Shown one piece after another: positions 1,831-60,098 of a DNA stretch of 64,000 bases (position 1 is its first letter; each line of letters starts with the position of its first letter). The DNA comes from Chiloscyllium plagiosum. Its lineage: Eukaryota. Both the position numbers and the translations under genes were made by a program. The stretch is taken from contig NC_057749.1 in NCBI RefSeq assembly GCF_004010195.1, forward strand, positions 11,451,540-11,515,539, written 5' to 3'. The notes under the pieces are model-generated. The model had not been told where the DNA came from and searched no databases. It saw only the letters and a program-made list of their open reading frames with translations.

Positions 1831-1928
1831 TCTTCCTGAAGAAGGGCTAATGCCCGAAACGTCGATTCTCCTGTTCCCTAGATGCTGCCTGACCTGCTGC
1901 GCTTCTCCAGCAACACATTTCCATCTCT
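1831..1928 (+). mobile_element. PLE pLTR fragment, family A, with intact hammerhead core and truncated 3' end
   Basis: Near-identical to 4665-4790 and 5565-5692, which flank a PLE RT remnant. Confidence 0.8.
1836..1863 (+). ncRNA. Minimal type-I hammerhead ribozyme core (family A)
   Basis: CTGAAGA-A-GGGC-TAAT-GCCC-GAAAC-GTC: conserved core, 4-bp stem II, palindromic ACGT stem III, GUC cleavage triplet. Stem I is weak (about 2 bp). Confidence 0.65.
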
Positions 1929-2219
1929 TTGGCAAGACAATGGCTCTAATTCGGAGCCCCGGAACCTACTCCTTGCTACTTGGGATGGCTCAAATGTACT
2001 TATCAATGGGCAATAGGATGTTTATCCAGTACCTTCTGTGACATGATTTGTTCACGAGGTCACAGCATTTTTGGGAGTCCCACCCTTCACAAGGATACCA
2101 ATAAGTGAAATGTGAAGGTGGCTAACTTTGCTATAGATACCTGACTTTTTGAAGCTAACTGTTTGGAAGGGCAGTGGAAAAGGCAAGCAGAAATAAAAGG
2201 CTCATCAGTCCTCTAAGAA

Positions 2220-2338
2220 GAGAAAGTGAGGACTGCAGATGCTGGAGATCAGAGATGGAAATGTGTTGCTGGAAAAGCGCAGCAGGTCAGGCAGCATCTA
2301 GGGAACAGGAGAATCGACGTTTCGGGCATTAGCCCTTC
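2220..2338 (-). mobile_element. PLE pLTR fragment, family A, complete 3' end but truncated within the hammerhead
   Basis: Reverse complement of the family A pLTR; stops before CTGA. Confidence 0.8.
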
Positions 2339-4275
2339 GAAGAGAGGCCAGCAAGTCTGGAACCTTATCAATCTGTTTTCCTAGATACCAAATATGGCAA
2401 AAATTGCCATACCAGAGTGGGACTGCTGAACCATTCAGGCAATGCTTTGCACAGAGTTGTGACCACTATGATTGTAAAAAAAAAAACCATTGTCTTATAA
2501 GACAGTGACAGCAAATTGTGTTTTTTTTTAAAGCAAAAGTAGTTGAAAGAAAGAGTAAACTCTTCAGTTACATTATGGTATATTGAGTTAACAGAATTGA
2601 TAATTTTGATTAAAAACTGTATGGTGTTTTTCTGTTGCAATAAGTACAAAAGAAGTATTATAAAATCCTTGTGTTGATAAAGTACTGTGAATTCTGCAGA
2701 AGATTTATAGAGTGATCGACTTTGATAGTATAATGTTTAGTATTTTAAATCTCTAGTTAATATTGAATGGAAGCTGTTGCTTATATGTGGTTACTGTATT
2801 TACAGAGAATAAAATTATAGTGATTAATATATTTAGAAATATTTTGATAAGTCATTTCATGTGGCTAATAGGAAAGATGGAATTTGGGTTGCTACGGGAA
2901 CATGAGTGACATTATTAAAGGAGATAGAGCAGGTTATTAATGAGAGAATAAGATTAGTATAATTGAAACTGAAAACATGAAACTTGAGGTTCCATTGTTG
3001 AACTTGTTTGTCAAATGGGACATTGTCTTTGATGGTCTCTAACTATGCCTGTGCAGGAGAATCTTACTGTTGTTTATGGAACTACTGTTAGAATGCAGCG
3101 GGGGGATGGGAATCTGAATTGTAGAGCCGGAGTACAGGAGGTTCAGCGTAGTGAGGTCAGGGATAGGTTTACAAGGTTGTGAGGGGGCACCGGCAATCAG
3201 GATGTTGGTTTGAAATGTGCATACTTCAATACCAGGAGTATCAGAATAAGGTGGGTGAACTTGCAGCAAGGATTAGTACCTGTGATTTCGATGTTGTGGC
3301 CACTTCAGAGACATGGCTAGAGAAGGGACAGGAATGGTTGTTGCAGATTCTGGCATTTAGATGTTTCAGCAAGCACAGAGAAGATGGTAAAAAAGGCAAG
3401 GGAATGGCATTATTAATCAAGGGTAGTATTACAGCAGCTGAGATAACATTTGAGGACTAATCCACTGAGGTAGTTTGGGCTGAGGTTACAAACAGGCACG
3501 GAGAGTCACCCTGTTGGGAGTTTTCTATAGGCCTCTGAATTGTTCCAGGGATGTAGAGGAAAAGATAACAAAGATGATTCTTGATAGAAGTGAGATAACA
3601 AGGTAGTTGTTATGGGGGACTTTAACTTCGGCAATATTGACTGGGAATACAATAGTTCAAGTAGTTTAGGTGGGGCAGGAGGGTTTCTGACACAGTATGT
3701 AGACAGGCAAACAAGGGGTGATGCCATATTGGATTGAGTACTGAGGAATGAACTCGGCCAGGTGGTAGATTTGGCGATAGGTGAGCATCTTGGCAATAGT
3801 GGCCATATTCCGGTTATGTTTACCATAGCAATGGGCAGGGATAGGTATATACCACAGGGAAAGAGGTATAATTGGGGAAAGGCAATTATGATGCAATGAG
3901 ACAAGATTTAGGATGGGGAAGGAAACTGCAGGGGATGGTGCAATTGAAATGTGCAACTTATTCAAAGAACAGCTGCTGCATATCCTTGATAAGTATATAG
4001 CTGTCAGGCAGGGAGGTAGTTGTTGAGAAAGGAGGCCATAGTTTGCTAAAGAAGTTGAAGCGCTTCTCCAGAGGCAGAGGAAGGCTTATGTGAGGATGAG
4101 GGGTGAAGGCTCAGTTAGGGGCCTTGCGAGTTATAAGTTAGCCAGAAAAGATCTAAAGAGAGGGCTAAGAAGAGCCAGGAGGGGACATGAGAAGTTGTTG
4201 GCGGATAGCATTAAGGAAAACCCAAGGCCTTCGAAAGGTATATTAGGAATAAAAGAATGGCCCTAATCTTAGTCA

Positions 4276-4480
4276 AGGAGAAAGTGAGGACTGCAGATGC
4301 TGGAGATCAGAGTCGAGGGTGTGTTGTTGGGAAAGCGCAGCAGGCTAGGTAGCAGCCTGAGGAGCAGGAGAATCGATGTTTTGGGCATAAGCCATTCCTG
4401 ATGAAGGGCTTATGCCTGAAATGTCGATTCTGCTGCTCCTCGGATGCTACCTGACCTGTGCTTTCCCAGCAACACACCAT
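4276..4480. mobile_element. Palindromic family A pLTR insertion with a hammerhead core at 4398-4425 (+)
   Basis: Left arm 4276-4393 is the reverse complement of the pLTR and right arm 4394-4480 is forward. Core CTGATGAAGGGCTTATGCCTGAAATGTC shows CpG decay. Confidence 0.8.
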
Positions 4481-4665
4481 CTAACCTTATTCCAGTCAAT
4501 CAAAGATAGTAGTGGAAAGTTGTGTGTGGAATCTGAGGACATAGGGGAAGTGCTTAATGAATACTTTTAGTCAGTATTCATGTTGGAAAAGGACCATGTT
4601 AGTGAGAATATGGAGATACAGGCTACAAGATTAGATGGGATCGAGGTTGACAAAGAGGTGGTTTC

Positions 4666-4693
4666 CTGAAGAAGGGCTTATGCCCGAAACGTC
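4666..4693 (+). ncRNA. Minimal type-I hammerhead ribozyme core (5' pLTR)
   Basis: CTGAAGAAGGGCTTATGCCCGAAACGTC. Confidence 0.68.
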
Positions 4694-5016
4694 GATTCTC
4701 CTGTTCCTTGGATGCTGCCTGACCTGTGCTTTTCCAGCAACACATTTTCAGCTCTGATCTCCAGCATCTGCAGTCCTCACTTTCTCCTCGAATATTTTAA
4801 CCTACTGCGAATCCTCATACAAGGATACCTTCCTTGAAGAAGCTCTCTTCCTCCCTCTACAAGGATTTCAGTGAGTCCCTCTCTCACTGCACTCCCCAGG
4901 TCATCTCCTCTGCACAGAAGCTCTTCAGCCACGTTCTCAAACAGACTCGCTACCACAGCCACATCTTCCTCAGCACCTGCCTACGGAACTGACTGATCCC
5001 GCACGGACTCCGGACT

Positions 5017-5545
5017 ATGTTCCGACCAACAAAATTTGGACCCAACCGGGACAACCAGTACCTACAACAAATCCGAAGCCTCCAGCAACAGACCTCCCTC
5101 TGGATCCTTCACTCCATGCTTGCAGCCATGCGGCGCTACCTACATTCCCTGCAATTAGACCTACCCCAGCTCAGGGCAACACACTCACATGCCTGTAAAG
5201 GACCTCAGCTGTTCTTCATCCACAGAAGAATCCATACACTAAATAAACAGTTCTTCCTAGCCATATCGGAAATTAAAGACAGTAAGTACCAAAAACTTTC
5301 ATGTACTTACCCCCACACTCTGGGTTCCTCAACTGTTCCAGAATCATCCATCGGCCTCCGAAATCGTTCCAGCTCTGCCTGCCTTTTCGTAGGATATGTG
5401 GAACAGTCCATCTTCCGCAGATACACTGGCACCACCCCCCACCTTTTCCTCCGCTACATCGATGACTCTATCGGCGCTGCCTCGTGCTCCCACGAGGAGG
5501 TTGAACAGTTCATCCACTTTACCAACACCTTCCACCCCGACATCA
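5017..5545 (+). pseudogene. PLE ORF remnant: N-terminal region fused in frame to an RT core fragment
   Basis: ORF 5017..5661 contains ACLFVGYVEQSIF...FLRYIDDSIG...FIHFTNTFHPDIK (PLE RT, YIDD motif). Most of the RT and the GIY-YIG domain are missing. Confidence 0.85.
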
Positions 5546-5566
5546 AAAAAAAGACTTTCCTCATTC

Positions 5567-5594
5567 CTGAAGAAGGGCTTATGCCCGAAACGTC
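5567..5594 (+). ncRNA. Minimal type-I hammerhead ribozyme core (3' pLTR)
   Basis: CTGAAGAAGGGCTTATGCCCGAAACGTC, identical to 4666-4693. Confidence 0.68.
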
Positions 5595-7229
5595 GATTCT
5601 CCTGTTCCTTGGATGCTGCCTGACCTGCTGCGCTTTTCCAGCAACACATTTTCAGCTCTGATCTCCAGCATCTGCAGTCCTCACTTTCTCTCCAAAGAGG
5701 AGGTTTTAGCAATTTTGGAAGATCTGAAAATAGATAAGATCCTGGGGCTGGATGGGATTTATCGTTTGATCCAGCAAGCCTTACTTTGATTGTGGATAAG
5801 GTGTTGGAAAGGGTTATAAGAGCGGATTTATCATCTTCTGGAAAAGAATAATTTGATTAGGGATAGTCAGTGTGGTTTTGTGAAGGGTAGATTGTACTTC
5901 ACTAACGTTATTGAGTTTTTTGAGAAGGTGACAAAACAGATGAATAAAGGTAAGGTGGTTGATGTGGTATATATGGACTTCAATAAGGCATTTAAGGTTT
6001 CACAAGGTAGGCTATTGCACAAAAGGAGGAGTTTCAGGATTGAAGGTTATTTAGTGGTTTGGATCAGAAATTGGCTCGCTGAAAGAATACAGGGTTGGTT
6101 GATGGGAAATGTTTATCCTGGAACTCAGTTACCGGTGGTGTGCCACAAAGATCTGTTTTGGGACCACTGCTGTTTTTATAAATGATCTGCATGTGAGTGT
6201 AGAAGGATGGTTAGTAAATTTGTAGATGACACCAAGGTAGGCAGAGTTGTGCGCAGTACTGAAGGATGTTGTGGGTTACAGAGGAACATCGATAAGATGC
6301 AGAGCTGCGTGGAGAAGTGGCAAATTGAGTTTAATGTGGAAAAGTGTGAGGTAGTTTGCTTCGCAAGAAATAACAGGAATGCGGAGTAGTGGGCTAATGG
6401 TAAAATTCTTTGACAGTGTAGGTGAACAGAGAGATCTATGTCCAGGTGCATAAATCTCTGAAAGTTGCGACCCAGATTGATAGGGTTGTTAAGAATGCCT
6501 ATGGTATGTTGGAGATTATTGGTAGGGGGGGGGGGGTTGAGTTTCAGAGCCACGAGGTCATAAGGCTGCACCTGGAGTATTGCATATAATTCTGGTCACC
6601 ACATTATAGGAAGGATGTGGAAGCTTTGGAAAGGGTTCAGATGAGATTTAGTAGAATGTTGCCTGGTATGGAAGGAAGGTCTTACGAGGAAAGGCTTAGG
6701 GAACTGAGACTATTTTTGTTGGAGAGAAGAAGGTTGAGAGATAACTTAATCAAGTCATATAATCGGGGGTTAAATAGGGTTGACAGGTGAGAGCCTTTTT
6801 CCTCAGATGCTGAAGGCTAACATGAGAAGTAGCTTTAAATTGAGGCATGATAGATTTAGGACAGATATTAGGGGTAGTGTCTTTACTCAGTAGTAGGGGG
6901 CATGGAACAGTCATAAACTTGCCAACGTTAAGGGCGTTTAAACGGGCATCGGACATACATAGGGATAATAATGGAACGTTGTAGTTTAGATGGGCATCAG
7001 ATTAATTTCACAGGTCAGCGCAATATCGAGGGCTGAAGGGCCTGTACTGGACTGTTATGTTCTATATCTCCTCACCTAAAGTCAAGGTTTGCGTTCCTAT
7101 AAATTGATTTAAATTTAAGCATTGATTTCCAGCATCTGCAAAAAGAAAAAGAGCTCATGTTTGAGGTGTATGACGTTTTGAGTTTTCATGAAAGTCATCA
7201 ACATGAAATGTTGACTCTTTCTTTCCACA

Positions 7230-7433
7230 ATTTGGAGATGCCGGTGTTGGACTCGGGTGTACAAGGTTAAAAATCACACAATACCAGGTTATAGTCCATC
7301 AGGTTTATTTGGAAGCATTAGCTTTTGGAGCACTGCTCCTTCATTGCACTACCTGACGAAGGAGCATCGCTCTGAAAACTAGTACTTCCAAATAAACTTG
7401 TTGGGCTATAACCTGGTGTTGTGTGATTTTTAA
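7230..7433. mobile_element. Palindromic short element, family B, with a hammerhead-like core at ~7353-7382
   Basis: Arms ~7267-7344 and ~7352-7433 are inverted repeats. Core CTGACGA-A-GGAGC-ATC-GCTCT-GAAA. TSD CTTTC(C/T)ACA at 7221-7229 and 7434-7442. Second copy at 43598-43817. Confidence 0.75.
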
Positions 7434-8844
7434 CTTTCTACAGTTGTTATTGGATCTGCTGAATTTATCCAGCTTTCTTTCATTCATATTTCAGGTTTCC
7501 AGCACCTGCAATTTTTGCTTTTGTTTTATTGTAGGCATGGAGGGATCATGGTGTGCAAGGAGCCACTCAGTCTTGAGCTTACAACCTTTCCTGCATAAAC
7601 TACTTTTATGAGCATTTGAGTTACTGATGTTACATATTTTTATTATTTCAATTAAGATGAGATTTGTTATTCTGAGTTCTCTTGCTCTTGGATGCCCAAG
7701 AATAACACATTACATTAAAAACACTGTTTAAATACAATGAAACTCCTTGCGATGGTTTACAGGCACATTGTGAAACAAAGGCAACAAATGACAGTTTTAA
7801 GTCAGCTCACTGAAAACTGAATCAGAGGTGAGGCTTAAGGATTTTCAACAGGAACTAGTGAGCTAGAGAGGCAAGAGTCATAGAGCTTTTTATTCCAGAG
7901 GTTGGGCATGATTGGAACTGAAGGTGTGGCTGCTTGTGGAGCAATTACATTTGAAAGGTGTTGAAGGAGCGGTGGCAAGTTCCTGTAGTACATTTTTTTT
8001 TCTTATTCATTCGAGGGATGTGGATGTCATTGGCTGGCCAGCATTTTTTATTGCTGTCTCTAGTTTGTTTTGAGAAATTGGTTATGAGCTGCCTTCTTAA
8101 ACTGCTGCAGTCTGTGTGCTGTGGGTTGACCCACAGTGCCCTTGAGGGGTTTTCAGGAATTTGATGCAAAACAGTGAAGGAACAATAATATATTTTGAAA
8201 TCAAGATGGTAAGTGGCTTGGAAGGGAACTTGTAGATGGTAGTGTTCCCATGTATGTGCTGGAAGCCCTTGTTCTTCTTGATGGAAGTGGTCATGGGTTT
8301 GGAAGGTGCTGTCTGAGGATCTTTGGTGAATTTTTGCAGTGTATCTTGTAGATAGTAGTACATATTTCTGCAACTGAACATCGGTGGAGGAGGGAATGGA
8401 TGCTGTGGATGTGGTGTCAATCAAGAGGGCTGCTTTGTTGTGGATGGTGACCAGCTTCCTGAGTGGTGTTGGAGCTACACTTATCCAGGGGAGTATTCCA
8501 TCACATTTGTGACATGTGCCTTGTAGATGATGGTCAAACTTTGGGGAGTCAGGCGGTGAGTTGTATTGCCACAGTATTCCTAGCCCCTGACCTGCTGTTG
8601 TGGCCTCTGTTTATATGGCAAGTCCAGTTCAGTTTCTGTTCGGTGGTAACCCTGTGATTTGGCTGTTTATGCTGCAAAGCCATGTAATTGTTCCATGGGC
8701 AATACCTTGAATAATCAAAGTTCAATTGCCAACTAGTTAATATTCTTTTCTCTTACAATATAACTTATTATTTACTTTGAGATCCAGTGTTCTTGCCATA
8801 TTGTCCTGATGAGTGCAAGACAAAAATCCTTGAGTGCAGTAATA

Positions 8845-8975
8845 GTAAATAAAGCAAAACTGGAAATTGCTGGAGAGCATGCTGATGAAGGGTCACTGGA
8901 CCCGAAACACTGACTCTTCTTTCTCCACTACCAGACCTGCTGAGTGCTCCAGCAGTTTCTGTATTTATTTCAGCT
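8845..8975 (+). mobile_element. Older pLTR-like short element, family D, with a decayed hammerhead at 8882-8912
   Basis: CTGATGA-A-GGGTC-ACTG-GACCC-GAAAC, then CCAGACCTGCTGAGT...CCAGCA. Related degenerate copies at ~7120-7520, ~13010-13215, ~27935-28140, ~37630-37770 and ~58555-58620. Confidence 0.6.
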
Positions 8976-9051
8976 TTGACTACAGGTTTGTTTTTACTGA
9001 TCATTGATCTCCAGAATGTTAATAGTGAGAGTTTCAGAAATGATCTTTTTA

Positions 9052-9353
9052 AATGGATGCAAGTTTGCTCGCTGAGCTGGAAGGTTCATTTTCTGATGTT
9101 TTATCACCATACTAGATAACATCAGTGAGCCTGTAATGAAACACTGGTGACATCACCACAGGAAATGACATCACCAATACAAGGAAGCCTAAACACAAAT
9201 AGAAAGCGGGTCATTAACACCAGTGCTTCATCGGAGGCTCACTGGTGTCACCTAAAATGATGATGAAATGTCTGAAAATGAACCTTCCAGGTTAGCGAAT
9301 CCAACTTACATCTAGAACCTCAACCTGAGCTACACACCTTCTCAAAACTCACT
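9052..9353. mobile_element. Palindromic family C PLE pLTR insertion (decayed hammerheads)
   Basis: 9052-9132 is the reverse complement of 9235-9312. Homologous to the pLTRs of the GIY-YIG PLE at 53670-54640. Confidence 0.75.
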
Positions 9354-10039: not shown

Positions 10040-10250
10040 TGGGTTTCTTTGGGTTAGTAATGTCATATAATCATATGACATACAAACATATAAATAGAAA
10101 GCAGGAATTTTCAGCATTGCTTCGCCTGAGGCCCACTGAAGATGTTACCTAGTAGGGTAGTGAAATGTCTGGAAATGAACCTTGCAGCTCAGTGAGCAAA
10201 CCTACATCCAAAACCTCAAACCTGAGCTACACATCTTCTCAAAACTTGCT
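10040..10250 (+). mobile_element. Family C PLE pLTR with hammerhead core at 10136-10169
   Basis: CTGAAGA-T-GTTACCTAGTAGGGTAGT-GAAATGTC; homologous to 54545-54640. Confidence 0.75.
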
Positions 10251-29501: not shown

Positions 29502-29686
29502 GAGGACAATACTGGGAGAAAGTGAGGACTGCAGGTGCTGGAGAGTCAGAGTCAAAAGGTGTGGTGCTGGTAAAGCACAGCAAGTCAGGTAGCATTTCTG
29601 AAGAAGGGCTTATGCCCGAAACGTCGATTCTCCTGTTCCTTGGATGCTGCCTGACCTGCGCTTTTCCAGCAACATATTTTCAGCTC
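29502..29686. mobile_element. Palindromic family A pLTR insertion
   Basis: Exact 14-bp TSD TATCTTCTCCCACC (29488-29501, 29687-29700); inverted arms. Confidence 0.85.
29598..29625 (+). ncRNA. Minimal type-I hammerhead ribozyme core
   Basis: CTGAAGAAGGGCTTATGCCCGAAACGTC. Confidence 0.65.
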
Positions 29687-30024: not shown

Positions 30025-30187
30025 ATGCTGGGAGAAAGTGAGGACTGCAGGTGCTGGAGAGCCAGAGTCAAAAGGTGTGGTGCTGGTAAAGCACAGCAAG
30101 TCAGGTAGCATTCCTGAAGGGCTTATGCGAACCGTCGACTGTCCTGCTCCTTGGAGGCTGCCTGACCTGCGCTTTTCCAGCCACACA
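30025..30187. mobile_element. Palindromic family A pLTR insertion, hammerhead decayed
   Basis: TSD CTGAGTTA on both sides; left arm nearly identical to 29515-29596. Confidence 0.8.
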
Positions 30188-40569: not shown

Positions 40570-41710
40570 TTGTTATAAAAATCTCACTCATCTGAACTCC
40601 AGGGAATATAATCTTAACTGATCCAACCTCTCCTCATCTGTCACTCCTGCCATCCTTGGAACCAGTCTGGTAAAAATCCTGGAATACCCTCTCTAATGGC
40701 ATTGTGTCAACCCACAGCAGACGGACTGCAGTGGTTCAAGAAGGCAGCTCACCCCCACCTTGTCAAGGGCATCTAGGGACTGGCAATAAATACAGGCCAG
40801 CCAGAATGCCCACATCCCACAAGATAATTTTTAATAAAAAACTTTGCTGCAGTCCTTTTAAAACAAGAACATCTTTTCTCAGATGCGACCAGACATGCGC
40901 ATAATATTCCAGGTATGGTCTCATCAAGGCCCTATATAATTGTAGCATAACATTTTTGTTCATGCACTAAAATTCTGTGTGAAGGCCAACATACTGTTTG
41001 TCGTCTTTACCACCTGCTGCACCTGCATATTTACCTCCATTGACTTGTGTGTATGGACATCCAGATCTCATCCCCCTCTCTCCATTACAGCTATTAAGAT
41101 AATCTTCCTTCCTGTTTGTGCTGTGAAAGTGGTTAGCTTCACATTTATCCACATTATACTACATCTGTCATCTCAACTTGTCTAAATCTTAAGGATTGCT
41201 GCATCATCATCACACTCCCTCCAGCTTTGTCATCTGCAAATTTGGAAATACAATAATTCATATTGTGAATATCTGGGTTCATAGTCTTGATTGCTGTGAT
41301 ATTGAGGAGGAGAAAGTGAGGACTGCAGATGCTGGAGATCAGAGCTGAAAATGTGTTGCTGGAAAAGCACAGCAGGTCAGGCAGCATCCAAGGAACAGGA
41401 GAATCGACATTTCGGGCATGAGCCTGAAGAAGGGCTCCTGAAGAAGGGCTCATGCCTGAATCGTTGATTCTCCTGTTCCTTGGATGCTGCCTGACCTGCT
41501 ATGCTTTTCCAGCAACACATTTTCTGCTGTGATATTGAGCTAGTCTCTGTCTGCCAGTTTGAAATGACCTGTTGATTCTTTGTTTTCTGTCTGCCTGCCA
41601 GTTTTCCGTCCATCTCATCAATACATTACCCCATTCCAATGCACTGAGTTTACATGCCAATCTCTTCTGTGTGACTTGGTCAAAATCCTTGTGAAAATTG
41701 AAATAAGCCA
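40570..41710 (-). mobile_element. Old CR1 RT fragment with nested L2 tail and palindromic pLTR
   Basis: LYRALMRPYLEY; ISKFADDK; AYFNFHKDFDQV. Confidence 0.75.
41307..41524. mobile_element. Palindromic family A pLTR insertion
   Basis: Exact 15-bp TSD TGCTGTGATATTGAG (41292-41306, 41525-41539); tandem CTGAAGAAGGGCTC at the centre. Confidence 0.88.
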
Positions 41711-41712
41711 CT

Positions 41713-42899: not shown

Positions 42900-44470
42900 A
42901 AAGGGGAATCATGGTCAATTGGGAAGTCAGTGGGATGGAAGGCAGCAGTAGTGAGCTGAAACACGCAAAAAATGCTTAATGAAAATAATAAGGAAGGCAA
43001 GAAGTACAGAAACGGCAAGCACAATAAACCCTTGTCAGAGGGTGCTGCCCCAGGAACCGAGCCAGGAGCCCATCCAACTTCACGAGTCCCACCAGGAGCC
43101 GAGTTCACGGAGTGTAGAGGCTGCTTATTGAATGTGTTGAGCAAGGTTGGTAATGTTCTCACTGGGGTCGGATGTAGGTACAGCAGTCAGAGCCAATGAG
43201 GGCACATGTGCCACCCCCCCCCCCCCCACACCTTTTGGCTAAAGCAATTCTGTTCTGCAAGGCAATGGTGCGAATGTCAAATCACCTTTGCACTAAGCTG
43301 GTCCAGGGCCGCTGCCATAGCGTTCGATATTTCCTCCCCGGGTCATGACCATTCGCCTACCCTCTATCTCCAGTCAGACAGCTGCATAAGAGGGGGAGAA
43401 GATAGCAAGAACCTGCTCAAGTGTGATAATTGCTCTCTTGCTGCAAGCCCTTGGCTTCTCGAAAGGAGAGGAGTGCAAATGGTAAATAAAAGGGGCCACG
43501 TACCCTCAGTAGCAACTCCCAGTCCAAGTGAGTGGCAGCTAAGGGTAGGCCTTGTGACTGCACATGAAGTAGATGCCATTACAGGTTCTCAAATGATTAT
43601 GATTTGGAGACGCTGGTGTTGGACTGGGGTGGACAAAATTAAAAATCACAACACCAGGTTATAGTCCAACAGGTTTATTTGGAAGCACTAGCTTTCGGAG
43701 CGCTGCTCCTGATAACAACCACCTGATGACAACCACCTGATGAAGGAGCAGCGCTCTGAAAGCAAGTTCTTCAAAATAAACCTGTTGAATGATAACCTGG
43801 TGTTGTGTGGTTTTTAACTCAAATGATCAGTCTGAGTTCCAGTCAAGAAGGTTGGGAATGTGGTATATTTGGCGGTTTAGTTGAGAACTTTAAGGTTAAG
43901 TATGCTCTCATCTGATTTGGACTGAATTGTGTAGAGATAAGGAGCAGGGGATGGGCACATCTGATGCAAGCATTCCATCCTGACGAATGGTCGCTTTTCA
44001 AGCAGATGGATCCCATGGATGTATCCCTTCCTGTGGTGTTGATGAGGAGCAAGACTGGGGGTTCAAATGAGAGATTGTACCGAGGTTGGAACCAACCCTT
44101 AAATTTCTCCATTTTATAGCCTGCTGATTTCCAGCGTATCTGGCTGCTGTTCCCAAAAGTCCCTATTTTAATCATGGATGGTAACCAACTGTGGAGTTGC
44201 AAGGTTTGACTTCAGAGGGCCTATCTTGTTCCAGCCACTATTCGGCCGTGTCGGACATATTAAATGGAATGGGCCTTGGGGAATGCTTCCCTGGGAGTGT
44301 ATGGGTATATGGGCACACATCCAGCAGCTGGAGTGATTGACTTGTTGAGCTTAGATAAGTCATGTAAAGAAGGCTGTTGGCACGCAATTCCCAATTGCTA
44401 GGGTTCATCATGCCGTTCTCTCTGCTCCACTCACGTCCAGTCAATGTCACTAAAGCAATGAGCAGCATGG
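42900..44470 (-). pseudogene. env: Retroviral envelope remnant (SU and TM)
   Basis: Manual translation: signal-like MLLIALVTLTG; NGIYFMCSHKAYP*LPLTWTGSCY*GYVAP; IRTIALQNRIAL (truncated immunosuppressive domain); TCALIGSDCCTYI (CX6CC); hydrophobic LLCLPFLYFLPSLLFSLSIFCVF. Confidence 0.82.
43598..43817. mobile_element. Palindromic family B element inserted in env, hammerhead-like core at ~43737-43766
   Basis: Exact 10-bp TSD CTCAAATGAT (43588-43597, 43818-43827); CTGATGA-A-GGAGC-AGC-GCTCT-GAAAGC. Confidence 0.82.
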
Positions 44471-45904: not shown

Positions 45905-46036
45905 CCCCCCGATGAAGGGCTTTTGCCCGAAACGTTGATTGTCCTGCTCCTCGGATGCTACCTGACCTCCTGTGCTTTGCCAGCACCACTCTAAACTTGA
46001 CTCTGATTTGCAGCATCGGCAGTACCCATTTTTCCT
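45905..46036 (+). mobile_element. Family A pLTR variant, 5'-truncated in the hammerhead
   Basis: GATGAAGGGCTTTTGCCCGAAACGTT preceded by poly-C. Confidence 0.72.
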
Positions 46037-51530: not shown

Positions 51531-54109
51531 TATAAGCCCCCTCCTTTATGTTCTTTGCCCCATGTTATATCTCAGCTTGACTTAAATAGATTCCACATCA
51601 TTGAAACATGTCTGACACAAAACCTTAATGCTTATCTTTTAAACACTACTTAGAGTCATAGAGATGTACAGCACAGAAACAGACCCTTCGGTTCAACTTG
51701 TTCATGCCGGTCAGATATCCCAACCCAATCTAGTCCTATCTGCCAGCACCTGGCCCATATCCTTCCAAGCCCTCCTTATGCATGTAACCATCCAGATGCT
51801 TTTTAAATATTGCAATTGTACCAGCCTCCACCACTTCCTCTAGCAGCTCATTCCACACAAGTATCACCCTCTGCATGAAAAGGTTTCCTCTTCGGTCTCT
51901 TTTATGTCTTTCCCCTCTCACCTTAAACATATGCCCTCTAGTTCTGGACTCCCCCACCCCAGGGAAAAGACTTTGTCTATTTACCCTATCCATGCTCCTC
52001 ATAGATTTCATAAACCTCTATAAAGTAACCCCTAAGCCTCTGACCCTCCAGGGAAAACAGCCCTAGCCTATTCAACCTCTCCCTATAGCTCCAATCTTCC
52101 ACCCCTTGCAACATCCTTGTAAATCTTTTCTGAACCCTTTCAAATTTCATAACATCTTTCCATTAGGAAGGAAACCAGAATTGCACGCAATATTCCAACA
52201 GTGGCCTAACCAATGCACTGTACAGCTGCAACATGTCCTCCCAACTCCTGTACTCAATACTCTGACCAATAAAAGAAAGCATACCAAATGCTGCCTTCAC
52301 TATCCTATTTACCTGCGACTCCACTTTCAAGGAACTATGAACCTGCATTCCAAGGTCTCTTTGTTCAGCAACACTCCCCAGGACCTTACCATTAAGTGTA
52401 TAAGTCCTGCTAAGACTTGCTTTTCCAAAATGCAGCACCTCACATTTATCTAAATTAAACTCCATCTGCCACTTCTCAGCCCATTGGCCCATCTGATCAG
52501 GATCCCATGGTAATCTGAGACCTAACCTTGCTAACCAGTCTCCCATTGGGAAACTTGTTGAATGCCTTACTGAAGTCCATATAGATCACTTCTACTGCTC
52601 TGCCCTCATCAATCCTCTTTGTTACTAATTCAAAACACCCGATCAAGTTTGTGAGACATGATTTCCCACGCGCAAAGCCATGTTGACTACCCCGAATCAG
52701 TCCTTACCTTTTCAAATACATGTACATCCTGTCCCTCAGGATTCCCTCCAGCAACTTGTTCACCACCGATGTCAGGCTCACTGGTCTATAGTTCCCTGGC
52801 TTGTCCTTACCACACTTCTTAAACAGTGGCACCACGTTAGGCAATCTCCAGTCTTCTGGCACCTCACCTGTTACTATCAATGATACAAATATCTCCGTAA
52901 GAGGCCCAGCAATCATTTCCCTAGCTTCCCACAGAGTTCGAGGGTACACCGGATCAGGTCCTGGGGATTTATCCACTTTTATGCATTTCAAGACATCCAG
53001 CCTGTCCTCCTCTGTAATATGGACATTTTTCAAGATGTCACCATGTATATCCCTACATTCTGTATCTTCCATGTCCTTTTCCACAGTAAATACTCGCAAA
53101 ATACTTGTTTAGTATCTCCCCATCTCCTGTGGCTCCACACAAAGACTGCCTCGCTGATCTTTGAGGGGCCCTATTCTCTCCCTAGTTACCCTTTTGTCCT
53201 TAATGTATTTGTAAAAACCCTTTGGATTCTCCTTAACTGTATTTGCCAAAGTTATCTCATGTCCACTTTTTGCCCTCCTGATTTTTCTCAAGTATACTCC
53301 TACTGCCTTTAGACTCTTCTAAGGATTCACTCAATGTATCCTATCTATACCAGCCATATGATTCCTTTTTCTTAACCAAACCCTCAATTTCTTTAGTCAT
53401 CCAGCATTCCCTATACCTGCCAGCCTTTCTTTTCACCCTAACAGGAATATACTTTCCCTGGACTCTCGCTACCTCATTTCTGAAGGTTTCCCATTTTCTA
53501 GCTGTCCCTTTACCTGCAAACATCTGCCCCCAATCAGCTTTTGAAAGTTCTTGCCTAATACTGTCAAAATTGCTCTTTCTCCAATTTAGAACTTCAACTG
53601 TTAGATTTGGTCTATCCTTTTCCATCACTATTTTAGAACTAATAGAATTAGTTTTAAAATAGAATTATAGCAAGTTTTAAGAAGATTTGTAGCTTAAGTT
53701 CTGGATGTAGGTTTACTTGCTGAGCTGTTCTGGATGTAGGTTTGCTTGCTGAGCTGGAAGGTTCATTTCCAGACGTTTCGTCACTCTACCATGTAACATC
53801 TTAAGTGGACCTCCAGGCGAAACACTGCTGATAATTCCTGCTTTCTATTTGTGTATTTGGGTTTCTTTGGGTTGGTGATGTCATCTCCTGTGTTGATGTC
53901 ATTTCCTGCTCTTTTTCTCAGGGGTGGTAAATGGGGTCTAACTTGATATGTTTGTTGATAGAGTTCCGGTTGGAATGCCATTCTTCTTGGAATTCTCATG
54001 CGTGTTTCTGTTTGGCTTGTCCTAGGATGGATGTTTTGTCCCAGTCAGTGGTGTCCGTTAGTCAGGATACTAATGAGAAAGGGTCATGCCGTTTGTGGCT
54101 AGTTGATGT

Positions 54110-54511
54110 TCATGTATCCTGGTGACTAGTTTGTCCAATGTAGTGTTTGTTACAGTTCTTGCACGGTGTTTTGTAAATGACGTTAGTTTTGCTTGTTGTC
54201 TGTATAGGGTCTTCCAAGTTAATTTGCTGCTGTTTCAGTGTGTTGGTGGGTTTGTGGGCTACCATGATGCCAAGGGGTCTGAGTAGTCTGACAGTCATTT
54301 CAGAGATGTCTTTGCAGGGGAGATTGGCTAGGATTTCTGGATGTGTTTTGTCTGCTTGTTTGGGTTTGTTGCTGAGAAATTGGTGGACTGTGTTCATTGA
54401 GTACCCATTTTTAAAAAAAATACATGGTATAGATGATTTTCCTCTGATCTGCGTAGTTCCTCTGTGCTGCAGTGTGTTGGCTCGTTGAAACATCCACAAA
54501 CGAAGCTGCAT
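54110..54511 (-). pseudogene. PLE RT thumb/linker and GIY-YIG endonuclease remnant
   Basis: FFKNGYS...HKPTNTLKQ...NVIYKTPCKNCNKHYIGQT. Confidence 0.9.
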
Positions 54512-54566
54512 CAGAACAGTATTTCAGTAGAAAGGAGGGATTATTAGTGCTTCACCCGGAGGCCCT

Positions 54567-54600
54567 CTGAAGATGTTACCTAGTAGGGTGATGAAACGTC
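54567..54600 (+). ncRNA. Type-I hammerhead ribozyme core (family C)
   Basis: CTGAAGA-T-GTTACC-TAGTAG-GGTGAT-GAAAC-GTC. Confidence 0.62.
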
Positions 54601-56689
54601 TGGAAATGAACCTTCCAGATCAGTGAGCCAACCTACATCCGAATAGAATTATGCTCGCTGGTCTCAGTGTTCCCTCACTGACACCTCAGTCACCTGCCCT
54701 GCCTTATATCCAAGAGTAGGTCAAGTTTTGTACCTTCTCTAGTAGGTACATTACATACTGAATCAGAAAATCTTTCTTAACAAATTCCTCTCCATCTAAA
54801 CCCTTAACACTATGGCAGTTCCAGTCTTTGTTGGGAAAGTTAAAATCCCCTACCACAACCATCCTATTATTCTTAGAGATAACTGAGATGTCCTTACAAA
54901 TTTGTTTCTCAATTTCCCTCTGACTGTTAGGGGCTCTATAATACAATCCCAATAAAGTGATCATCCCTTTCTTATTTCTCAGTTCCACCCAAACAACTTC
55001 CCTGGAAATATTTCTAGGAATATCCTCCCTCAGCACAGCAGTAATGCTATCCCTTATCAAAAATACCACTCCCCCCTCCTCTCTTGCCTCCCTTTCTGTC
55101 CTTCCTGTAGCATTTGTATCCTGGAACATTTAAGCTGTCCATCCCTGAGCCATGTTTCTGTAATTGCTATGATATCCCAGTCCTATGTTCGTAACCATGC
55201 CCTGAGTTTGTCTGCCTTCCCTGTTTGTTCTCTGCTTTTGTTCCTGCCTGCCCTGACTGTTAGAGTCGCCTTTGTTCTCAACCGTACCAGTTTCCGATAG
55301 ATCTCTTTCCTCACTATCTCTCTGGGTTCTCCTGTCCGTCCTCTGCACCCACATTACTAGTTTAAATCCTCCTGAGCAGCTCTAGTAAATCTCCCTGCCA
55401 GTATATTAATCCCAATTTAGTTGCAATCAGTCCTCCTTGTACAGGTCACCTCTACACCAAAAGAGCTTCCAATGATCCAAAAATGTGAATCCTTCTCCCA
55501 TCCACCAACTCCTTAGCCATGCATTCATCTGTTCTATCCTCCTATTCCTGTCCTCACTAGTTCGTAGCACTGGGAGTAATCCAGATTTTGCTACTATCGA
55601 GGACTTTCTTTTTAAATCCTTGCTTAATTCTCTGTAATCTCCCTTCAGAATCTTAACCTTTTCTCTTCCTATGTCGTTGGTTCCAATGTGTACAATGACT
55701 TCCTGCTGGCCCATCTCCCCCTTGAGAACATTCTACACCCTCTGAGACATCTTTGACCCTGGCATCAGGGAAGCAACACACCATTCTGATATTTTTGTTG
55801 CTGGCCACAGCAACGTCTGTCTGTACCTCGGACTAGAGAGTCCCCTAACATGATCGATCTCTTGGAACCTGGCATGCCCTGGCAGAGCCAATCTCAATAC
55901 CAGAAATTTGGCTGTTCCTGCTACATTCCCCTGAGAATCCATCACCCCCTACGTATTCCAAAATAGCATACTTGATTGAAATGGGGATAGCCACAAAAGA
56001 CTCCCGCATTAACTGCCTACCTCTCTTACCTTTCCTGAAGTTAACCCATCCATATGACTGTATCTGCGATGTTTCCCCCTTTCTACAACTGCTATCCATC
56101 GCATCCCCTTGCTCTTGTAAATTCCTCATTGCCTCTAACTGTCTCTCCAACCGATCCATTTGATCTGATAGGATTTGCAACCAACAGCCTTTATTGCCGA
56201 TGTAATCCTCAGGAACCCATAAACTCTCCCTAAGCGCTCGTATCTGACCAGAAGAGCATATCGCTCTACTAAAGGCCATTTTTGCTTCTTTCAATCTACA
56301 ATCCCACATAATAGCACTGTCTTATTCCTCTACAAAACACTGCTCCAGATTAAATTAATATTTCTGGTTTATATTTTAAGTTTAATCAAGAGACATAACT
56401 CAATAAATCATATAATCAAGAAAGAAGACACTATACTGAGTACTGCAAGCTTACTGTAAGGCCACACTTAAAATGTCCGCTTATCTGTTTCTGTGCTGTG
56501 ACCTCTCCCAAACAGGTTCCTCCAAGATCAGTTGTGAATTTCACTGTTTGTTAATTTTCCGAGATGCACTCCAATGTCCAGCGATACATAAACTTTGTCC
56601 CCCTGTCTAGAAGTTTGCAAATGGAGTTGGTTCTTTGCTCTTGTTCTCTCTTTAGGGCTTTCATGCCTAATGAATATTTAAACAAGAGT

Positions 56690-57480
56690 CCCTTCATTGT
56701 GATCCCTGGGGAAGGGGGTCGTGGAGAGAAAGAGGGCTGAGAGATAAGTAGGAGGGTGGGGATGAGGTAGCTGGGAAGGCGATAGGTAGATGCAGATGGC
56801 AGGTGGTAATGATAGGTCGGAGGGGAGTGTGGAGTGGATAGATGGAAAGGAAGATGGGCATGTAGGACAGTTCAAGAGCGCAGAGCCGTGTTGGAGGGTT
56901 GGATCTGGGATGAGTTGGGCGTAGGGGAGATGAGAAAACGTGTGAAGTGAATGTTGATGCTGTGTGGTTGGAGGGTCCCAAGGTGGAAGATGAGGCGTTC
57001 TTCCTCCAGGCATCAGGTGGCTTGGATTTGGTGGGTGGAGGTGGCCCTGGAATTTAACTCCCCCTCCCACTCTGCCAAGGACAGGCAATCCTGGGCTGCC
57101 TCCATGGCCAAGTCTAAGCCCCCTGATGCCTGGAGGAAGAGTGCCTCATCATCTGCTTTGGGGCCCTCCAACTTCAGTTTCCTTATCCCAGATCCAACCC
57201 TGTCCATCTTCTTTCCCACCTATTCGCTCCATCCTCCCTTCCAACCTATCACCATCACCACCCACCTGTATCTACATATTGCCTTCCCAGCTACCTAACC
57301 GCCTCCCTCCCCTTGTATTTATCTCTCAGCCCCCTTCTCTCCACCCCCACATATCTGATGAAGGGCTTATGCCCAAAACGTCAATCCTCCTGCTGCTTGG
57401 ATGCTGTCTGACCTGCTGTGCTTCTTCCACACCACGCTTATTGACTCTGGTCTGCAGCGTCTGCAGTCCTCACTTTCTCT
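56690..57480. mobile_element. Family A PLE 3' end with a long inverted duplication (56690-57040 -, 57050-57480 +)
   Basis: Both arms carry the PLE C-terminus (FNSPSHSAKD; LEEERLIFHLGTLQPHSINIHF) and a pyrimidine-rich 3' UTR. Hammerhead at 57355-57382 has GAAA mutated to AAAA. Confidence 0.8.
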
Positions 57481-57492
57481 CAGAAAGCCAGT

Positions 57493-57799
57493 TTAGAATA
57501 CATTACAGTGTGGAAACAGGCCCTTCGGCCCAACATGTCCACACCGACCCGCCGAAGCGCAACCCACCCATACCCCTACATTTACCCCTTAGCTAACACT
57601 ACGGGCAATTTAGCATGGCCAATTCACCTGACCTGCACATCTTTGGATTGTGGGAGGAAACTGGAGCACCCGGAGGAAACCCACGCAGACACGGGGAGAA
57701 TGTGCAAACTCCACACAGGCAGTCGCCTGAGGCAGGAATTGAACCCGGGTCTCAGGCGCTGTGAGGCAGCAGTGCTAACACTGTGCCACCGTGCCGCCC
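57493..57799 (-). mobile_element. HE1-like SINE, full length and CpG-rich (young)
   Basis: Starts GGGCGGCACGGTGGCACAGTG; B box GGTTCAATTCC; CCAGTT flanks both ends. Confidence 0.9.
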
Positions 57800-58961
57800 A
57801 GTTAGCTTTCCAATACAAAATGATCATCTTTGCAACCCAGGTTGTACTGAGCCCAGTTGTGATCTAAATGAGCACAGACTTTGGATTAAACCTGTAGAGG
57901 TGACACGGGGCATGTTCTCTCATGCTCCCTCTTCTCCCCCACCACTTGTAAATATGCAATGTAGAGCAAGAAAGTCCTAATTCATTTCCAGGTGCTAAAT
58001 AAGCTTTCATAATGAGCGTTATGTATAAGTTAAACCATGCTTTAAGATGTCCAGCACAGGAGAATGCTGTCTAAAAGAAACAATCCTTCATTTTTTTGTA
58101 GCCCAAGACTATTTGCATATGTTTTCATTTTGATTCTTTTAAAAATTATTTCATGGAATGTAAGATTTCCTTAAAGTGAAGGAGTAGAGCTTTTTGTGTG
58201 CATTGAATTGATTTGATCTGACATGGTTGCAGTTTCAGTGAGAATCACAGTAGTATCGATAAATGACTTTTTTCCTTTAAGGTGGACTACTTAGAAGATT
58301 GATGTAAAAAGTAGCTGGGGCATTTACTTTTTCCATTCACTTGAACAAAGCATCCAACAAGGTTTTGCTAAATAGATGCAATGCACTATTTTCAGATCCA
58401 CTTTTAACACTTGATAAGATTGAAAATACTCTGAAGTATTGTGCCCTGAGTGCACTATTTGTTTGGCTCCGTGAGTATTAGTGCAGTTACAAAGTGCTGC
58501 ACTTGAAAATTTGCGTTCACATTGTTCATTTTAATTGTACATTTTTTTGGATCCCTTTCTCTCTCCACAGATACAACCGGTCCTGCTGAGTTTTCCTGGC
58601 ACACTTTATTATTTGTGCTTGTCTTTGGCATGAAGTGAGTTGCTGATGATAGACTTTGCAATTTTCCCTTACTATTGGAAGTCTGTATTTTTGAGGCCTA
58701 GCATGACGGTTGATGTGGAACTACACTGTGCAATACAAATTTAATGGTGTTTTCAATTTAGCACAGTTACTTGGTTATGCCAAGAACTGTGTTTTAATTG
58801 TTCTTGTTCAGGCTGTTTTATTAGCAAAGTGGTCAATCTTCCCTCACTACTTCTCCTGATTTCTCTTCCTTCCACTCACCATACCAATCAAAGCTTACTT
58901 GCTATGAACCAGGGAGTTGGATGAAGGATTGCATTGAGTGAGTCAGAAGAGGGAAATGGGA

Positions 58962-60098
58962 TATAGAACAAAGAGCATTACAGCACAGGAACAGGCTCTT
59001 TGGGCCTCCAAGCCTGCGCTGATCCATGTCCTCTGTCTAAATCTGCTGCCTATTTTCTAAGGATCTGTATCCCTTTGTTCCTGCCCATTCATGTATCTGT
59101 CAAAATAATGCTACGTGACGCTATTGTTCCCGCCCCTACCATCTCTGCTGGCAATGCGTTCCAGGCACTTGCTATGAAGAATTTTCCAGGTGTATCTCCC
59201 TTAAACTTTTCCCCCCTCACTTTGAACTCGTGACCCCTTATAATTGTGCCCTCTACTTTGGGCAAATGTTTCTTGCTATCCACCCAGTCTACGCCCCTCA
59301 TGACTTTGTTGGCCTCAATCATGAGAGGGTGGCTCAGTGGTTAGCACTGCTGCCTCTCAGCACCAGGGACCCGGGTTTGACTCCACCTTCTGGCGACTCT
59401 GTGTGGAATTTGCACCTTCTCCCCATGTCTGCGTGGGTTTCCTCCCACAATCCAAAGATGTGCAGGTTAGGTGAATTAGGTAAAAATCTCTCCACACTTC
59501 CGGCTCTCTGCCTTTGTTCCTGATGAAGGGCTTTTGCCTGAAATGTCGATTTTACTGCTACTTGGATGCTGCCTGAACTGCTGTGCTCTTCCAGCACCAC
59601 TAATCCAGAATCCAGGTTAGGTGAATTGGCCATGCTAAATTGCCCATAGTGTTCAGGGGTGTGTAGGTTAGCTGCATGAGTCAGGGGTAAATTTCGGGGA
59701 ATGGGTCTGGGTGGGATAATCTCTAAAGGATCGGTGTTGACTTGTTGCCCGAAAGGTCGATTTTGAAGCTCCTTGGATGCTGCCTGAACTGCTGTGCTCT
59801 TCCAGCACCACTAATCCAGAATCTGGTTTCCAGCATCTACAGTCATTGTTTTTACCTTGTTGGGCCAAGGGGCCTGTTTCCACACAGTAGGGATTCTAGT
59901 CCTAATTCTAATCAGGTTTCCCCCCAACCACCTCCTTTCCAATGAAAGTAATCCTAATCTACTCAAGCTCTCCTCCTAGCTAGCACCCTCCATACCAGGT
60001 GACATCTGGCGAACTTCCTCTGTACCTTTTGGTAATGTGGCGACCAGAACTGTACGCAGTACTCCAAATGTGGCTGAGCCAAAGTCTTATAGAACTGT
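58962..60098 (-). mobile_element. CR1 3' fragment containing a SINE that carries two pLTR insertions
   Basis: RGHEFKVRGEKFKGD..WNALP; resumes at ~59912. Confidence 0.85.
59323..59910 (+). mobile_element. HE1-like SINE with nested family A-variant pLTRs at 59478-59612 and 59748-59855
   Basis: A box TGGCTCAGTGG; TSDs CAGGTTAGGTGAATT (59463-59477, 59613-59627) and CTTGTTG (59741-59747, 59856-59862); hammerhead core 59520-59547. Confidence 0.85.

Follow-up and report, generated by a model that had tools for sequence, protein, structure and literature searches.

The closest described relatives of the loci reported here are the minimal hammerhead ribozymes of Penelope-like elements (PLEs), in print since 2014 for fishes, coelacanth and frogs (Cervera and de la Pena 2014, PMC4209133), with one cartilaginous fish included in a 2026 preprint (10.64898/2026.07.22.740005). 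Four features are listed for this class: an intact core, an unpaired base after A9, the pair G10.1-C11.1 and a palindrome replacing helix III (PMC4209133). In the Poseidon PLE of the lizard Anolis carolinensis (PAc; Frangieh et al. 2024, PMC11167929) the hammerhead lies at the junction of pLTR and ORF; two internal RT start sites, the first in an AC-rich stretch about 100 nt downstream of the hammerhead, give an optional tail, and both target strands are cut and extended, the two start sites and the extension of both strands having been shown in vitro. Descriptions of PLEs include a tail of 30-40 bp, a 5' copy in inverted orientation and heavily truncated 5' ends (PMC8557442). In Penelope of Drosophila virilis transcription starts in the pLTR upstream of the hammerhead, which places the ribozyme within the 5' leader (Schostak et al. 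2008, PMC2377424).

The window, that is the whole 64-kb stretch of shark DNA analysed, contains short elements of lineages A, B, C and D, and C2, C3, D2 and B2-type variants occur elsewhere in the genome. BLAST of the window identified 28 fragments of the four families (16 A, 4 B, 6 C and 2 D), 9 of them matching a loose motif pattern (the core, GAAA, then NN-T-H). The earlier note had counted more than 15 loci sharing CTGANGA, one extra base, a stem II hairpin and GAAA; the figure was loose, and the 14 coordinates that it lists all hold this motif. A strict descriptor (CTGANGA with at most one extra base, then a perfectly paired stem II of 4-9 bp closed by a loop of 3-8 nt, then GAAA) found 11 sites in the window, about 0.1 being expected by chance, and 30 in a 264-kb sample formed by the window and two 100-kb genome samples. 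With the sequences reversed it found 0 sites, and 50 second-order Markov resamples gave 0.44 on average and never more than 2. The looser CTGANGA-N5-30-GAAA matched 17 times in the window against 6.33 expected, a count reached in 0 of 100 shuffles. The excess over chance stems from repeat amplification, so the independent evidence is the number of distinct lineages and not the copy count. Eleven of the 14 loci pass the strict descriptor and three fail by a single point change each: GAAA to GAAT at 41438, G12 to A at 57355 and CTGA to CTTA at 53772 (minus strand). CpG decay is seen at 4398, 59520 and 10136, where TGTC replaces CGTC. Stem III is mutated in the window copies of family B (7353 and 43737) and family D (8882); genome copies read GAAAGCTA in B and GAAACGTT in D.

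By sequence, the loci carry the small hammerhead motif already known from PLEs, and their earlier assignment to the minimal type-I class with a palindromic mini stem III is borne out by every published sequence feature. The core boxes C3-U4-G5-A6-N7-G8-A9 and G12-A13-A14 are invariant in natural copies of lineages A, A2, B, C, C2 and D, these boxes being also the search criterion and hence circular as evidence of detection; a reversed pattern of the A-type motif gave 0 matches in the whole genome, against 126,899 real ones. The unpaired base between A9 and 10.1 is present in 29 of the 30 descriptor matches, where 0 or 1 was allowed; families A, B and D have A there, C and C2 have U. G10.1 stands opposite C11.1, or T/U at a decayed CpG, in all 23 stem types (51 matches). 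Helix III is absent and a palindrome is found in its place, ACGU (ACGU-C or ACGU-U) in A, C and D and AGCU (AGCU-A) in B, intact copies reading GAAA-CG-UC, GAAA-CG-UU or GAAA-GC-UA. The Watson-Crick 15.2-16.2 pair followed by U16.1 and H17 is kept in 15 of the 30 matches, the others differing at CpG-decay positions. In the family A reference at 5567 cleavage is predicted after 5594.

The core boxes, unpaired base, G10.1-C11.1 pair, palindromic 15.2-16.2 and short helix I (2-3 bp only) are those of the PLE hammerheads, as are the pLTR location with many solo and opposite-strand copies and the presence of several consensus families per genome with compensatory changes (PMC4209133). The differences are in the host, a shark, a group not named in the portions of that paper compared here; in stem II, of 4 bp in family A and usually 7-8 bp in Schistosoma; and in copy number, at least 126,899 intact A-type motifs in this genome against about 4,000 in coelacanth and 9,000 in Xenopus (PMC4209133).

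Family A is the most frequent in the window. Arms on the plus strand with an intact hammerhead are a short form with no tail (1833..1928, core at 1836), a solo arm with tail (4663..4786, hammerhead 4666) and the full-length reference with tail (5563..5694, hammerhead 5567), whose positions are numbered q1-132. The latter is preceded by a PLE RT fragment (..LRYIDD..FHPDIK; 5170..5560, plus strand), 75% identical to P0010, and the A-rich junction between the two marks an internally deleted copy. Other plus-strand arms are one with its 5' end replaced by a C run (45908..45989), a copy preceded by about 175 nt of pLTR and bearing the G12 to A change (57180..57481), one of a TTTT-loop subfamily with a short pLTR extension and a CpG-decayed hammerhead (59517..59600, hammerhead 59520) and one 5'-truncated inside the hammerhead (59746..59844). 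A long-form arm on the minus strand is likewise truncated, starting at q10 (2219..2338). Inverted twin arms of this family are found at 4278..4476 (4278-4397 minus and 4394-4476 plus; hammerhead 4398 CpG-decayed), at 29513..29691 (29513-29595 minus and 29594-29691 plus, with duplicated TCTTCTCCCACC flanks; hammerhead 29598 intact), at 30029..30187 (both truncated) and at 41306..41533 (hammerhead 41438 without GAAA), the last with a 14-nt micro-duplication at its junction (41423-41451).

Family B comprises two pairs of inverted twin arms, at 7230..7442 (7230-7344 minus and 7348-7442 plus; hammerhead 7353) and at 43599..43819 (hammerhead 43737). A plant microRNA model matches the hairpin of the second pair weakly, with a score under its threshold. 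Family D is represented by an arm at 8872..9031 (plus strand, hammerhead 8882). Family C comprises two inverted fragments with no intact hammerhead (9055..9312, formed by 9055-9123 minus and 9222-9312 plus), a plus-strand arm with a TATAAATA box upstream and a CpG-decayed hammerhead (10095..10209, hammerhead 10136) and a 5'-truncated PLE on the minus strand (53725..54523), in which a GIY-YIG fragment (54113-54523) is followed by the pLTR and the core-mutated hammerhead 53772. The plus-strand family C arm at 54522..54716, with hammerhead 54567 intact, is inverted relative to the 5' end of this truncated PLE.

The link of families A and C to PLE RT and GIY-YIG coding sequence, proposed earlier, is supported by the window and still better by longer copies from the genome, where the unit comes after about 250 nt of pLTR and after the C-terminal end of an RT/GIY-YIG reading frame. 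For both families the motif was found in the pLTR of an element encoding RT together with a GIY-YIG endonuclease at the C-terminus. Immediately upstream of an A hammerhead is an ORF (L009:3645-4160, minus strand) that aligns with the GIY-YIG end of P0010, which carries RVT_1 and GIY-YIG (53% identity, E 4e-29), and the RT sequence of window positions 5170..5560 was also identified upstream of the A hammerhead in L009. Window positions 54113-54523 (minus strand) are 61% identical to P0002 over its GIY-YIG stretch, and in 2 of 11 other genomic loci (L030 to L040) the GIY-YIG match is followed 370-500 nt downstream by a strict family C hammerhead. Since A and C run upstream into RT/GIY-YIG reading frames in longer copies, they are PLE ends. 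The radiation of non-autonomous ribozyme elements proposed in the earlier note is not supported; the short elements of A and C are 5'-truncated or leader-length ends of autonomous-type PLEs. No coding parent was found for families B and D, the former having upstream of it 300 nt or more of AT-rich sequence that is apparently non-coding and in which no ORF was found, and the copies retrieved included no full-length one whose A hammerhead is followed downstream by an ORF. The hammerhead of PAc is similarly placed at the pLTR/ORF junction, and the ORF of C and C2, like that of PAc, starts where stem II begins (PMC11167929); the ATG in loop II of family A opens just 26 codons.

The insertions show the PLE signature: their 5' ends are heavily truncated, a 5'-truncated copy lies alongside in inverted orientation, a tail is optional, and there are target-site duplications, identified at L007, at the L002/L003 pair and at L006. 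The unit begins with the hammerhead motif and extends for about 95 or 128 nt (95-130 bp) to one of two 3' ends, and a frequent form consists of two inverted arms with their hammerhead ends facing each other. In family A the long ends drop sharply after ..CACTTTCTC and the short ends around q93-100, and of 61 anchored arms 30 have the tail motif and 31 lack it. The tail measures about 31 nt in A (q97 versus q128) and about 38 nt in B, whose arms have the same geometry. The two 3' ends probably correspond to the two internal reverse-transcription start sites of the lizard PLE, and the twin arms would arise if both cut target strands prime cDNA synthesis, both likened to PAc, although compared with the PAc assays the architecture described here is read from genomic copies alone (PMC11167929). 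Tandem retrozyme arrays were considered and rejected: TRF found no tandem unit array in the window, only micro-duplications of 14-29 nt at junctions.

The 5' ends of the arms accumulate 4-8 nt upstream of the hammerhead core, with 35 of the 79 A arms in the 264-kb sample extending upstream to q6 or beyond. Among 100 young A copies tallied by hand, about 36 are pLTR-extended, 36 are at inverted junctions and 28 are solo, at least 12 of the latter starting exactly at ATTC. B arms without pLTR start 5-8 nt ahead of the core; a TATAAAT box, conserved in all 3 of the longer copies, lies 33-36 nt upstream of these starts. Canonical TATA boxes lie upstream in families B and C, and the TATA-like element of family A is weak (TTTATC). 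The pile-up would most simply reflect a transcription start in the pLTR, as in Penelope, where the start is 46 nt plus a 75-nt intron upstream, against an inferred RNA 5' end 4-8 nt from the core here, and where the promoter, unlike that of B and C, is TATA-less (PMC2377424). It suggests that the arms are copies of a short RNA leader; with a transcription start at that point, most of the short elements would be cDNA copies of just the first 95-130 nt of the PLE RNA and not separate non-autonomous families.

The hammerhead itself is probably weak, putatively self-cleaving and dependent on a dimer or a protein. The Rfam check suggested earlier matched no hammerhead model at the gathering score or at E<=10, on the 64 kb or on a 101-nt stretch; these covariance models, of canonical type I/III, include helix III. 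Monomer folds were no more stable than shuffles (z -0.98 to 0.75), and with 2-3 bp in helix I and no helix III the monomer should be inert. Raw RNA reads, from a poly-A single-cell library poorly suited to end mapping, showed neither starts nor ends accumulating at q1 or the cleavage site, and about 70 reads of this library begin in the pLTR and continue through the proposed start as far as the hammerhead. Of the 79 A arms, only 2 start at the first base after the predicted cleavage site, with no excess over neighbouring positions. The hammerhead of the lizard PLE is dispensable for insertion in vitro, with no reads starting or ending at its cut site (PMC11167929), and Naiad PLEs proliferate without canonical hammerheads (PMC8557442). 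All this would agree with a hammerhead kept by descent that does not cleave in vivo and is conserved for RT or protein binding, as a promoter-proximal element or as an ORF start, the last in line with the AUG spelled by A9, the extra U and G10.1 in C and C2. That reading is nevertheless considered unlikely, given the retention of all core nucleotides across the lineages seen while stem II changes in sequence and keeps its pairing, the change of the palindrome from ACGU to AGCU with self-complementarity retained, the compensated pair described below and the weak dimeric or protein-assisted cleavage published for such motifs (PMC4209133; PMC11167929).

A fixed core with a stem II differing between lineages had been noted before and is supported, with at least one clear compensated pair. 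Positions 10.2 to 10.4 of stem II show three to four Watson-Crick pair types across lineages. In family A one pair is G-C in 126,899 copies, A.C in 2,826, G.U in 2,486 and A-U in 1,865, so that the compensated A-U subfamily is 34 times commoner than the approximately 55 copies expected under independent mutation. On these whole-genome counts, selection on stem II acts at the level of lineages. Among family A copies the core showed no slower decay than the other non-CpG positions, and mutations in the motif are most frequent at its three CpGs (24-32%). The hammerhead would be retained in master copies, and individual genomic copies decay neutrally.

Could the short units be independent non-autonomous retroelements, SINE-like or retrozyme-like, with only a ribozyme and an RT recognition region and using PLE proteins in trans? 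Their abundance is in favour, with the family A 36-mer occurring 97,120 times in the genome when as many as 2 mismatches are allowed and 79 A arms counted in the 264-kb sample (about 1 per 3.3 kb, or 2.5% of the sampled DNA), as are the discrete 5' and 3' ends, the AT-rich upstream region of family B with no ORF found and one same-strand pair, 145 bp apart, among young A copies. Animal non-LTR retrozymes were reportedly treated by Cervera and de la Pena in 2020. Like the present units they are non-coding, occur as dispersed monomers and carry type I hammerheads with a relation to PLE pLTRs (Li et al. 2026), and they are argued to derive from PLE pLTRs (10.64898/2026.07.22.740005). However, retrozymes are defined by tandem hammerhead units and circular RNAs, and the units of the window are dispersed or inverted, with no tandem arrays. 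In longer copies the A and C units form one stretch with pLTR and GIY-YIG sequence (about 36 of 100 in the hand tally), solo arms lack the upstream TATA-bearing region, and re-mobilised read-through transcripts would bring foreign 5' flanks and not sharp ends, so independence of the units is improbable. That the units are 3' tails of opposite-strand LINEs or SINEs, with the GC hairpin as RT recognition stem-loop and the hammerhead likeness due to chance, is hardly credible: one constant and one variable end and a window full of LINE fragments (AP endonuclease, RVT_1 and GDSL esterase matches) would suit it, but the variable end forms two discrete classes with no continuum, the GIY-YIG ORF is upstream on the hammerhead strand, contradicting the required orientation, the same 11 core nucleotides are common to four to nine unrelated stem II sequences, and reversed-pattern controls gave 0-229 matches against 10^4-10^5 real ones.

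The loci are thus, with good confidence, terminal PLE pieces from several lineages, the short units probably being mostly leader copies and the hammerhead probably weak. In this shark genome the known PLE hammerhead motif is amplified to very high copy number. The accumulation of 5' ends just upstream of the ribozyme, not described for PAc in the portions of that report compared here (PMC11167929), may be a new feature of these elements.

The assembly is eukaryotic, with a size of 3.56 Gb, and the window is rich in retrotransposon debris, including LINE fragments matching AP-endonuclease, RVT_1 and GDSL-esterase. Fragments at 17214-22168 and 54707-55732 (-) contain RVT_1, AP endonuclease and a GDSL-lipase/OSK-like ORF, a domain set that suggests CR1/L2-type elements with an esterase ORF1. 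The hammerhead cores that the earlier note had placed at 14 coordinates were identified at all 14, each with CTGANGA, one extra base, a hairpin and GAAA. A loose pattern gave 17 matches in the window against 6.33 expected, a number reached in none of 100 shuffles. A strict descriptor gave 11 sites in the window and 30 in a 264-kb sample comprising the window plus 100 kb each from contigs C1 and C40; the reversed sequences gave none, and 50 Markov resamples averaged 0.44. The excess over chance is due to repeat amplification, and lineages rather than sites are therefore what counts as independent evidence. The genome contains well over 150,000 intact motifs, far more than the few thousand PLE (Penelope-like element) hammerhead motifs given for coelacanth and for frog (PMC4209133).

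The intact motif of family A (for example at 5567) comprises a CUGAAGA core, an unpaired A, a GGGC/GCCC stem with a 4-nt loop and GAAA, followed by CG, U and C. The stretch GAAA-CG-U-C thus reads as A15.1-C15.2-G16.2-U16.1, a loopless self-complementary ACGU, with C17 as the predicted cleavage nucleotide. Helix I has 2 bp in family A and 3 bp in families B and C. Among the 30 strict sites of the 264 kb, the extra base is present in 29 and the mini stem III is kept in 15; the first pair of stem II is always G10.1 opposite C11.1, or T at a decayed CpG. Stem III is mutated in the window copies of families B and D, the genome copies reading GAAAGCUA in B and GAAACGUU in D. These features are exactly those of the minimal hammerheads of PLE pseudo-LTRs (pLTRs), proposed to act as dimers by Cervera and de la Pena (PMC4209133, in the text available). 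Rfam scans of the 64 kb and of a 101-nt stretch, at the gathering score or at E<=10, identified no hammerhead or other ribozyme family; for the hammerhead models this is the expected outcome, the motif having no helix III. Monomer folds were not more stable than shuffles. That family B is a MITE-like hairpin without a ribozyme was considered and dropped, as its genome copies show GAAAGCUA and the arm geometry of family A.

Between lineages the core is constant, and stem II varies in sequence and length with its pairing kept. Stem II pairs, tallied by script and from listings, are GGGC/GCCC in A, GAGC/GCUC in A2, GGAGC/GCUCC in B, GGGUC/GACCC in D, GAGUC/GACUC in a D2-like lineage and GUUACCU/GGGUGAC in C; C2 and C3 are C-like with one internal mismatch. 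At position 10.2/11.2 of the A frame, the whole-genome counts were G-C 126,899, A.C 2,826, G.U 2,486 and A-U 1,865, the last against about 55 predicted by independent mutation. The A-U copies form a homogeneous subfamily and therefore represent one compensatory event in a master lineage. Single genomic copies decay neutrally, and the three CpGs within the motif are its most mutated positions (24-32%). Within a family, a comparison of the core with its flanks gives no evidence of constraint: the low core mismatch of 1.8% is equalled at other non-CpG positions, and an edge effect of local alignment exaggerates it.

Families A and C are linked to PLE coding sequence. In family C, the stretch 54113-54523(-) is 61% identical to the homologous protein P0002 over a region weakly called GIY-YIG by Pfam, and a mutated hammerhead lies downstream of it at 53772(-). 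A strict family C hammerhead was identified 370-500 nt downstream of a GIY-YIG match in 2 of 11 other genomic loci. Of the 35 family A arms (single unit copies) that reach the 5' edge of the hammerhead, about 10 run on upstream into a common sequence. At locus L009 this sequence enters an ORF that aligns with the C-terminal GIY-YIG part of P0010 (53% identity, E 4e-29), a protein with RVT_1 and GIY-YIG both at Pfam threshold, and farther upstream is RT sequence also found at window 5170-5560. The nearest proteins are from carpet sharks, the whale shark and a stingray. The identity of the PLE fragments was established through homologues; on the decayed window ORFs Pfam gave no GIY-YIG and no RT for these fragments, and a PDB sequence search with them gave no match. 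No coding parent was found for families B and D, and the sequence downstream of the hammerhead is common to A and D. A minus-strand LINE-tail reading was ruled out, the orientation being fixed by target-site duplications and the upstream GIY-YIG ORF. The hammerhead and PLE identification of the earlier note is thus right, and the elements are of a known kind; the radiation of non-autonomous ribozyme elements that it proposed is not supported for A and C, whose units belong to PLEs, and may apply to B and D.

Two further observations concern coding sequence near the hammerhead. At window 5540-5566 eight consecutive A connect a PLE RT fragment to the family A leader, and about 1.1 kb is absent relative to the L009 copy, so this is an internally deleted PLE. 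In family C (window 54567) and in C2 (locus L018, 8279, minus), A9, the extra U and G10.1 form an AUG whose frame stays open to the arm end for at least 24 and at least 37 codons, respectively; the ORF of a lizard PLE likewise starts at stem II.

The reference arm of family A is window 5563-5694 (q1-132), with C3 at q5 and cleavage predicted after q32. Family A comprises 79 arms in the 264 kb, a density of one per 3.3 kb, and takes up 2.5% of this DNA; plain extrapolation gives about a million arms genome-wide. The shares of the other families are 0.84% (B), 0.36% (C) and 0.18% (D), and together the short PLE ends make up nearly 4% of the sampled DNA. Target-site duplications were identified at loci L007 and L006 and at the L002/L003 pair. 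Many insertions consist of two inverted arms with the hammerhead ends facing. Two classes of 3' ends were found, a long one ending sharply after ..CACTTTCTC (q128) and a short one at about q93-100, often after ..ACTCT; apparent ends at q85-86 are an artefact of BLAST breaks at subfamily divergence. Of 61 anchored A arms, 30 have the tail motif and 31 lack it. The geometry of family B matches that of A, with a tail of about 38 nt. The available text of PMC8557442 describes the PLE signature as strong 5' truncation, a neighbouring inverted copy and a tail of 30-40 bp.

The sole tandem-like case seen comprises two same-strand A copies 145 bp apart, with near-identical upstream sequence (assembly G000, C1:4847267 and C1:4847412). 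At two other loci, L018 (~8000-8290, minus) and L012 (~1500-2000, plus), a C2-type arm of hammerhead plus about 110 nt ends exactly at the start of a family B copy, these B copies being 5'-truncated at different points; the junctions look like PLE insertions at the tail of an older PLE from another lineage. An A pair (window 41423-41451) and a B pair (43708-43743) each carry a micro-duplication of 14 nt at the 5' junction, and one of 29 nt (53698-53756) adjoins a C copy at its 3' end, slightly beyond the BLAST-defined arm. They may represent template slippage at RNA ends.

The notable weak Rfam matches were limited to microRNA-like ones on twin-arm hairpins. Those at 43673-43781 and 41379-41491 weakly match plant microRNA models below threshold (MIR845_1, E 2.6e-07; MIR528). 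A GC-rich inverted repeat of about 220 nt at 56962-57181, with weak MIR1144 and mir-561 matches, directly precedes the family A copy at 57355, the one with pLTR sequence. For annotation, the long twin-arm hairpins imitate MITEs and microRNA precursors, and automated pipelines could mislabel them.

The 5' ends are unevenly spread. In a hand tally of 100 genomic copies of the youngest A subfamily, about 36 extend into the pLTR, about 36 end at inverted junctions and about 28 are solo, at least 12 of the latter starting exactly at ATTC, 4 nt before C3. Among 100 family B copies tallied in the same way, about half extend into the pLTR and most others start 5-8 nt before C3; a TATAAAT box 33-36 nt upstream of the B ends is conserved in 3 of 3 longer copies. 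Family C presents TATAAATA farther upstream, and family A a weak TTTATC alone at a distance similar to that of the B box. In the poly-A single-cell RNA run X7, a library type uninformative about ends, A copies are covered on both strands and neither starts nor ends pile up, while about 70 reads cross from the pLTR into the hammerhead. None of the records containing the stretch is an RNA record, and no reads were placed from run X8. Of the 79 family A arms, only 2 have their 5' end at the base that follows the predicted cut. Arms with this start were sought as a footprint of self-cleavage and showed no enrichment. If the ribozyme cleaves in vivo, the cleaved RNA would thus rarely serve as template, in agreement with the lizard PLE study (PMC11167929, in the text available).

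It is possible, though doubtful, that most of the roughly one million A arms and their B counterparts are leader retrocopies of PLE RNA. The PLE RNA would start at a pLTR promoter, 4-8 nt upstream of the hammerhead, at ATTC in family A and at ACAACCAC or ACCAC in family B. The RT would start internally about 95 or 128 nt downstream and so would usually copy the leader alone, often from both cut target strands, giving hairpin-like twin arms. This reading is in line with Penelope of D. virilis, whose transcription start, in the available accounts, lies within the pLTR and precedes the hammerhead (PMC2377424; PMC4209133). For the lizard PLE, RT is reported to start in vitro at two internal sites, in and past an AC-rich stretch, and both target strands to be cut and extended (PMC11167929).

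What had appeared as a striking pattern of many ribozyme families now falls within the known frame of minimal hammerheads in PLE pLTRs. The host group and the scale are new; leader-length copies whose 5' ends are sharp may be a third novelty. Literature combining Penelope, shark or elasmobranch and hammerhead yielded only a review and genome papers naming Penelope among shark repeats (PMC8455134, in the text available), although supplementary species lists may name cartilaginous fishes; a 2026 preprint, as far as its available text goes, places retrozymes in one cartilaginous fish (10.64898/2026.07.22.740005). Numbers are thus added for a vertebrate group in which no description of PLE hammerheads was found. 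Internal RT initiation and both-strand extension, both recently claimed from in vitro work, find a natural test in the copy ends. If the leader-copy reading is true, these ends would preserve a fossil record, formed in vivo, of internal initiation and two-strand priming, and the main genomic output of these PLEs would be dead 100-nt insertions making up 3-4% of the genome. The near absence of arm starts at the cleavage site would then mean that the templates are uncleaved RNAs. The ribozyme would lie at the extreme 5' end of the transcript, where cleavage would remove the cap together with the initial 32 nt, and this could be a switch between messenger and template.
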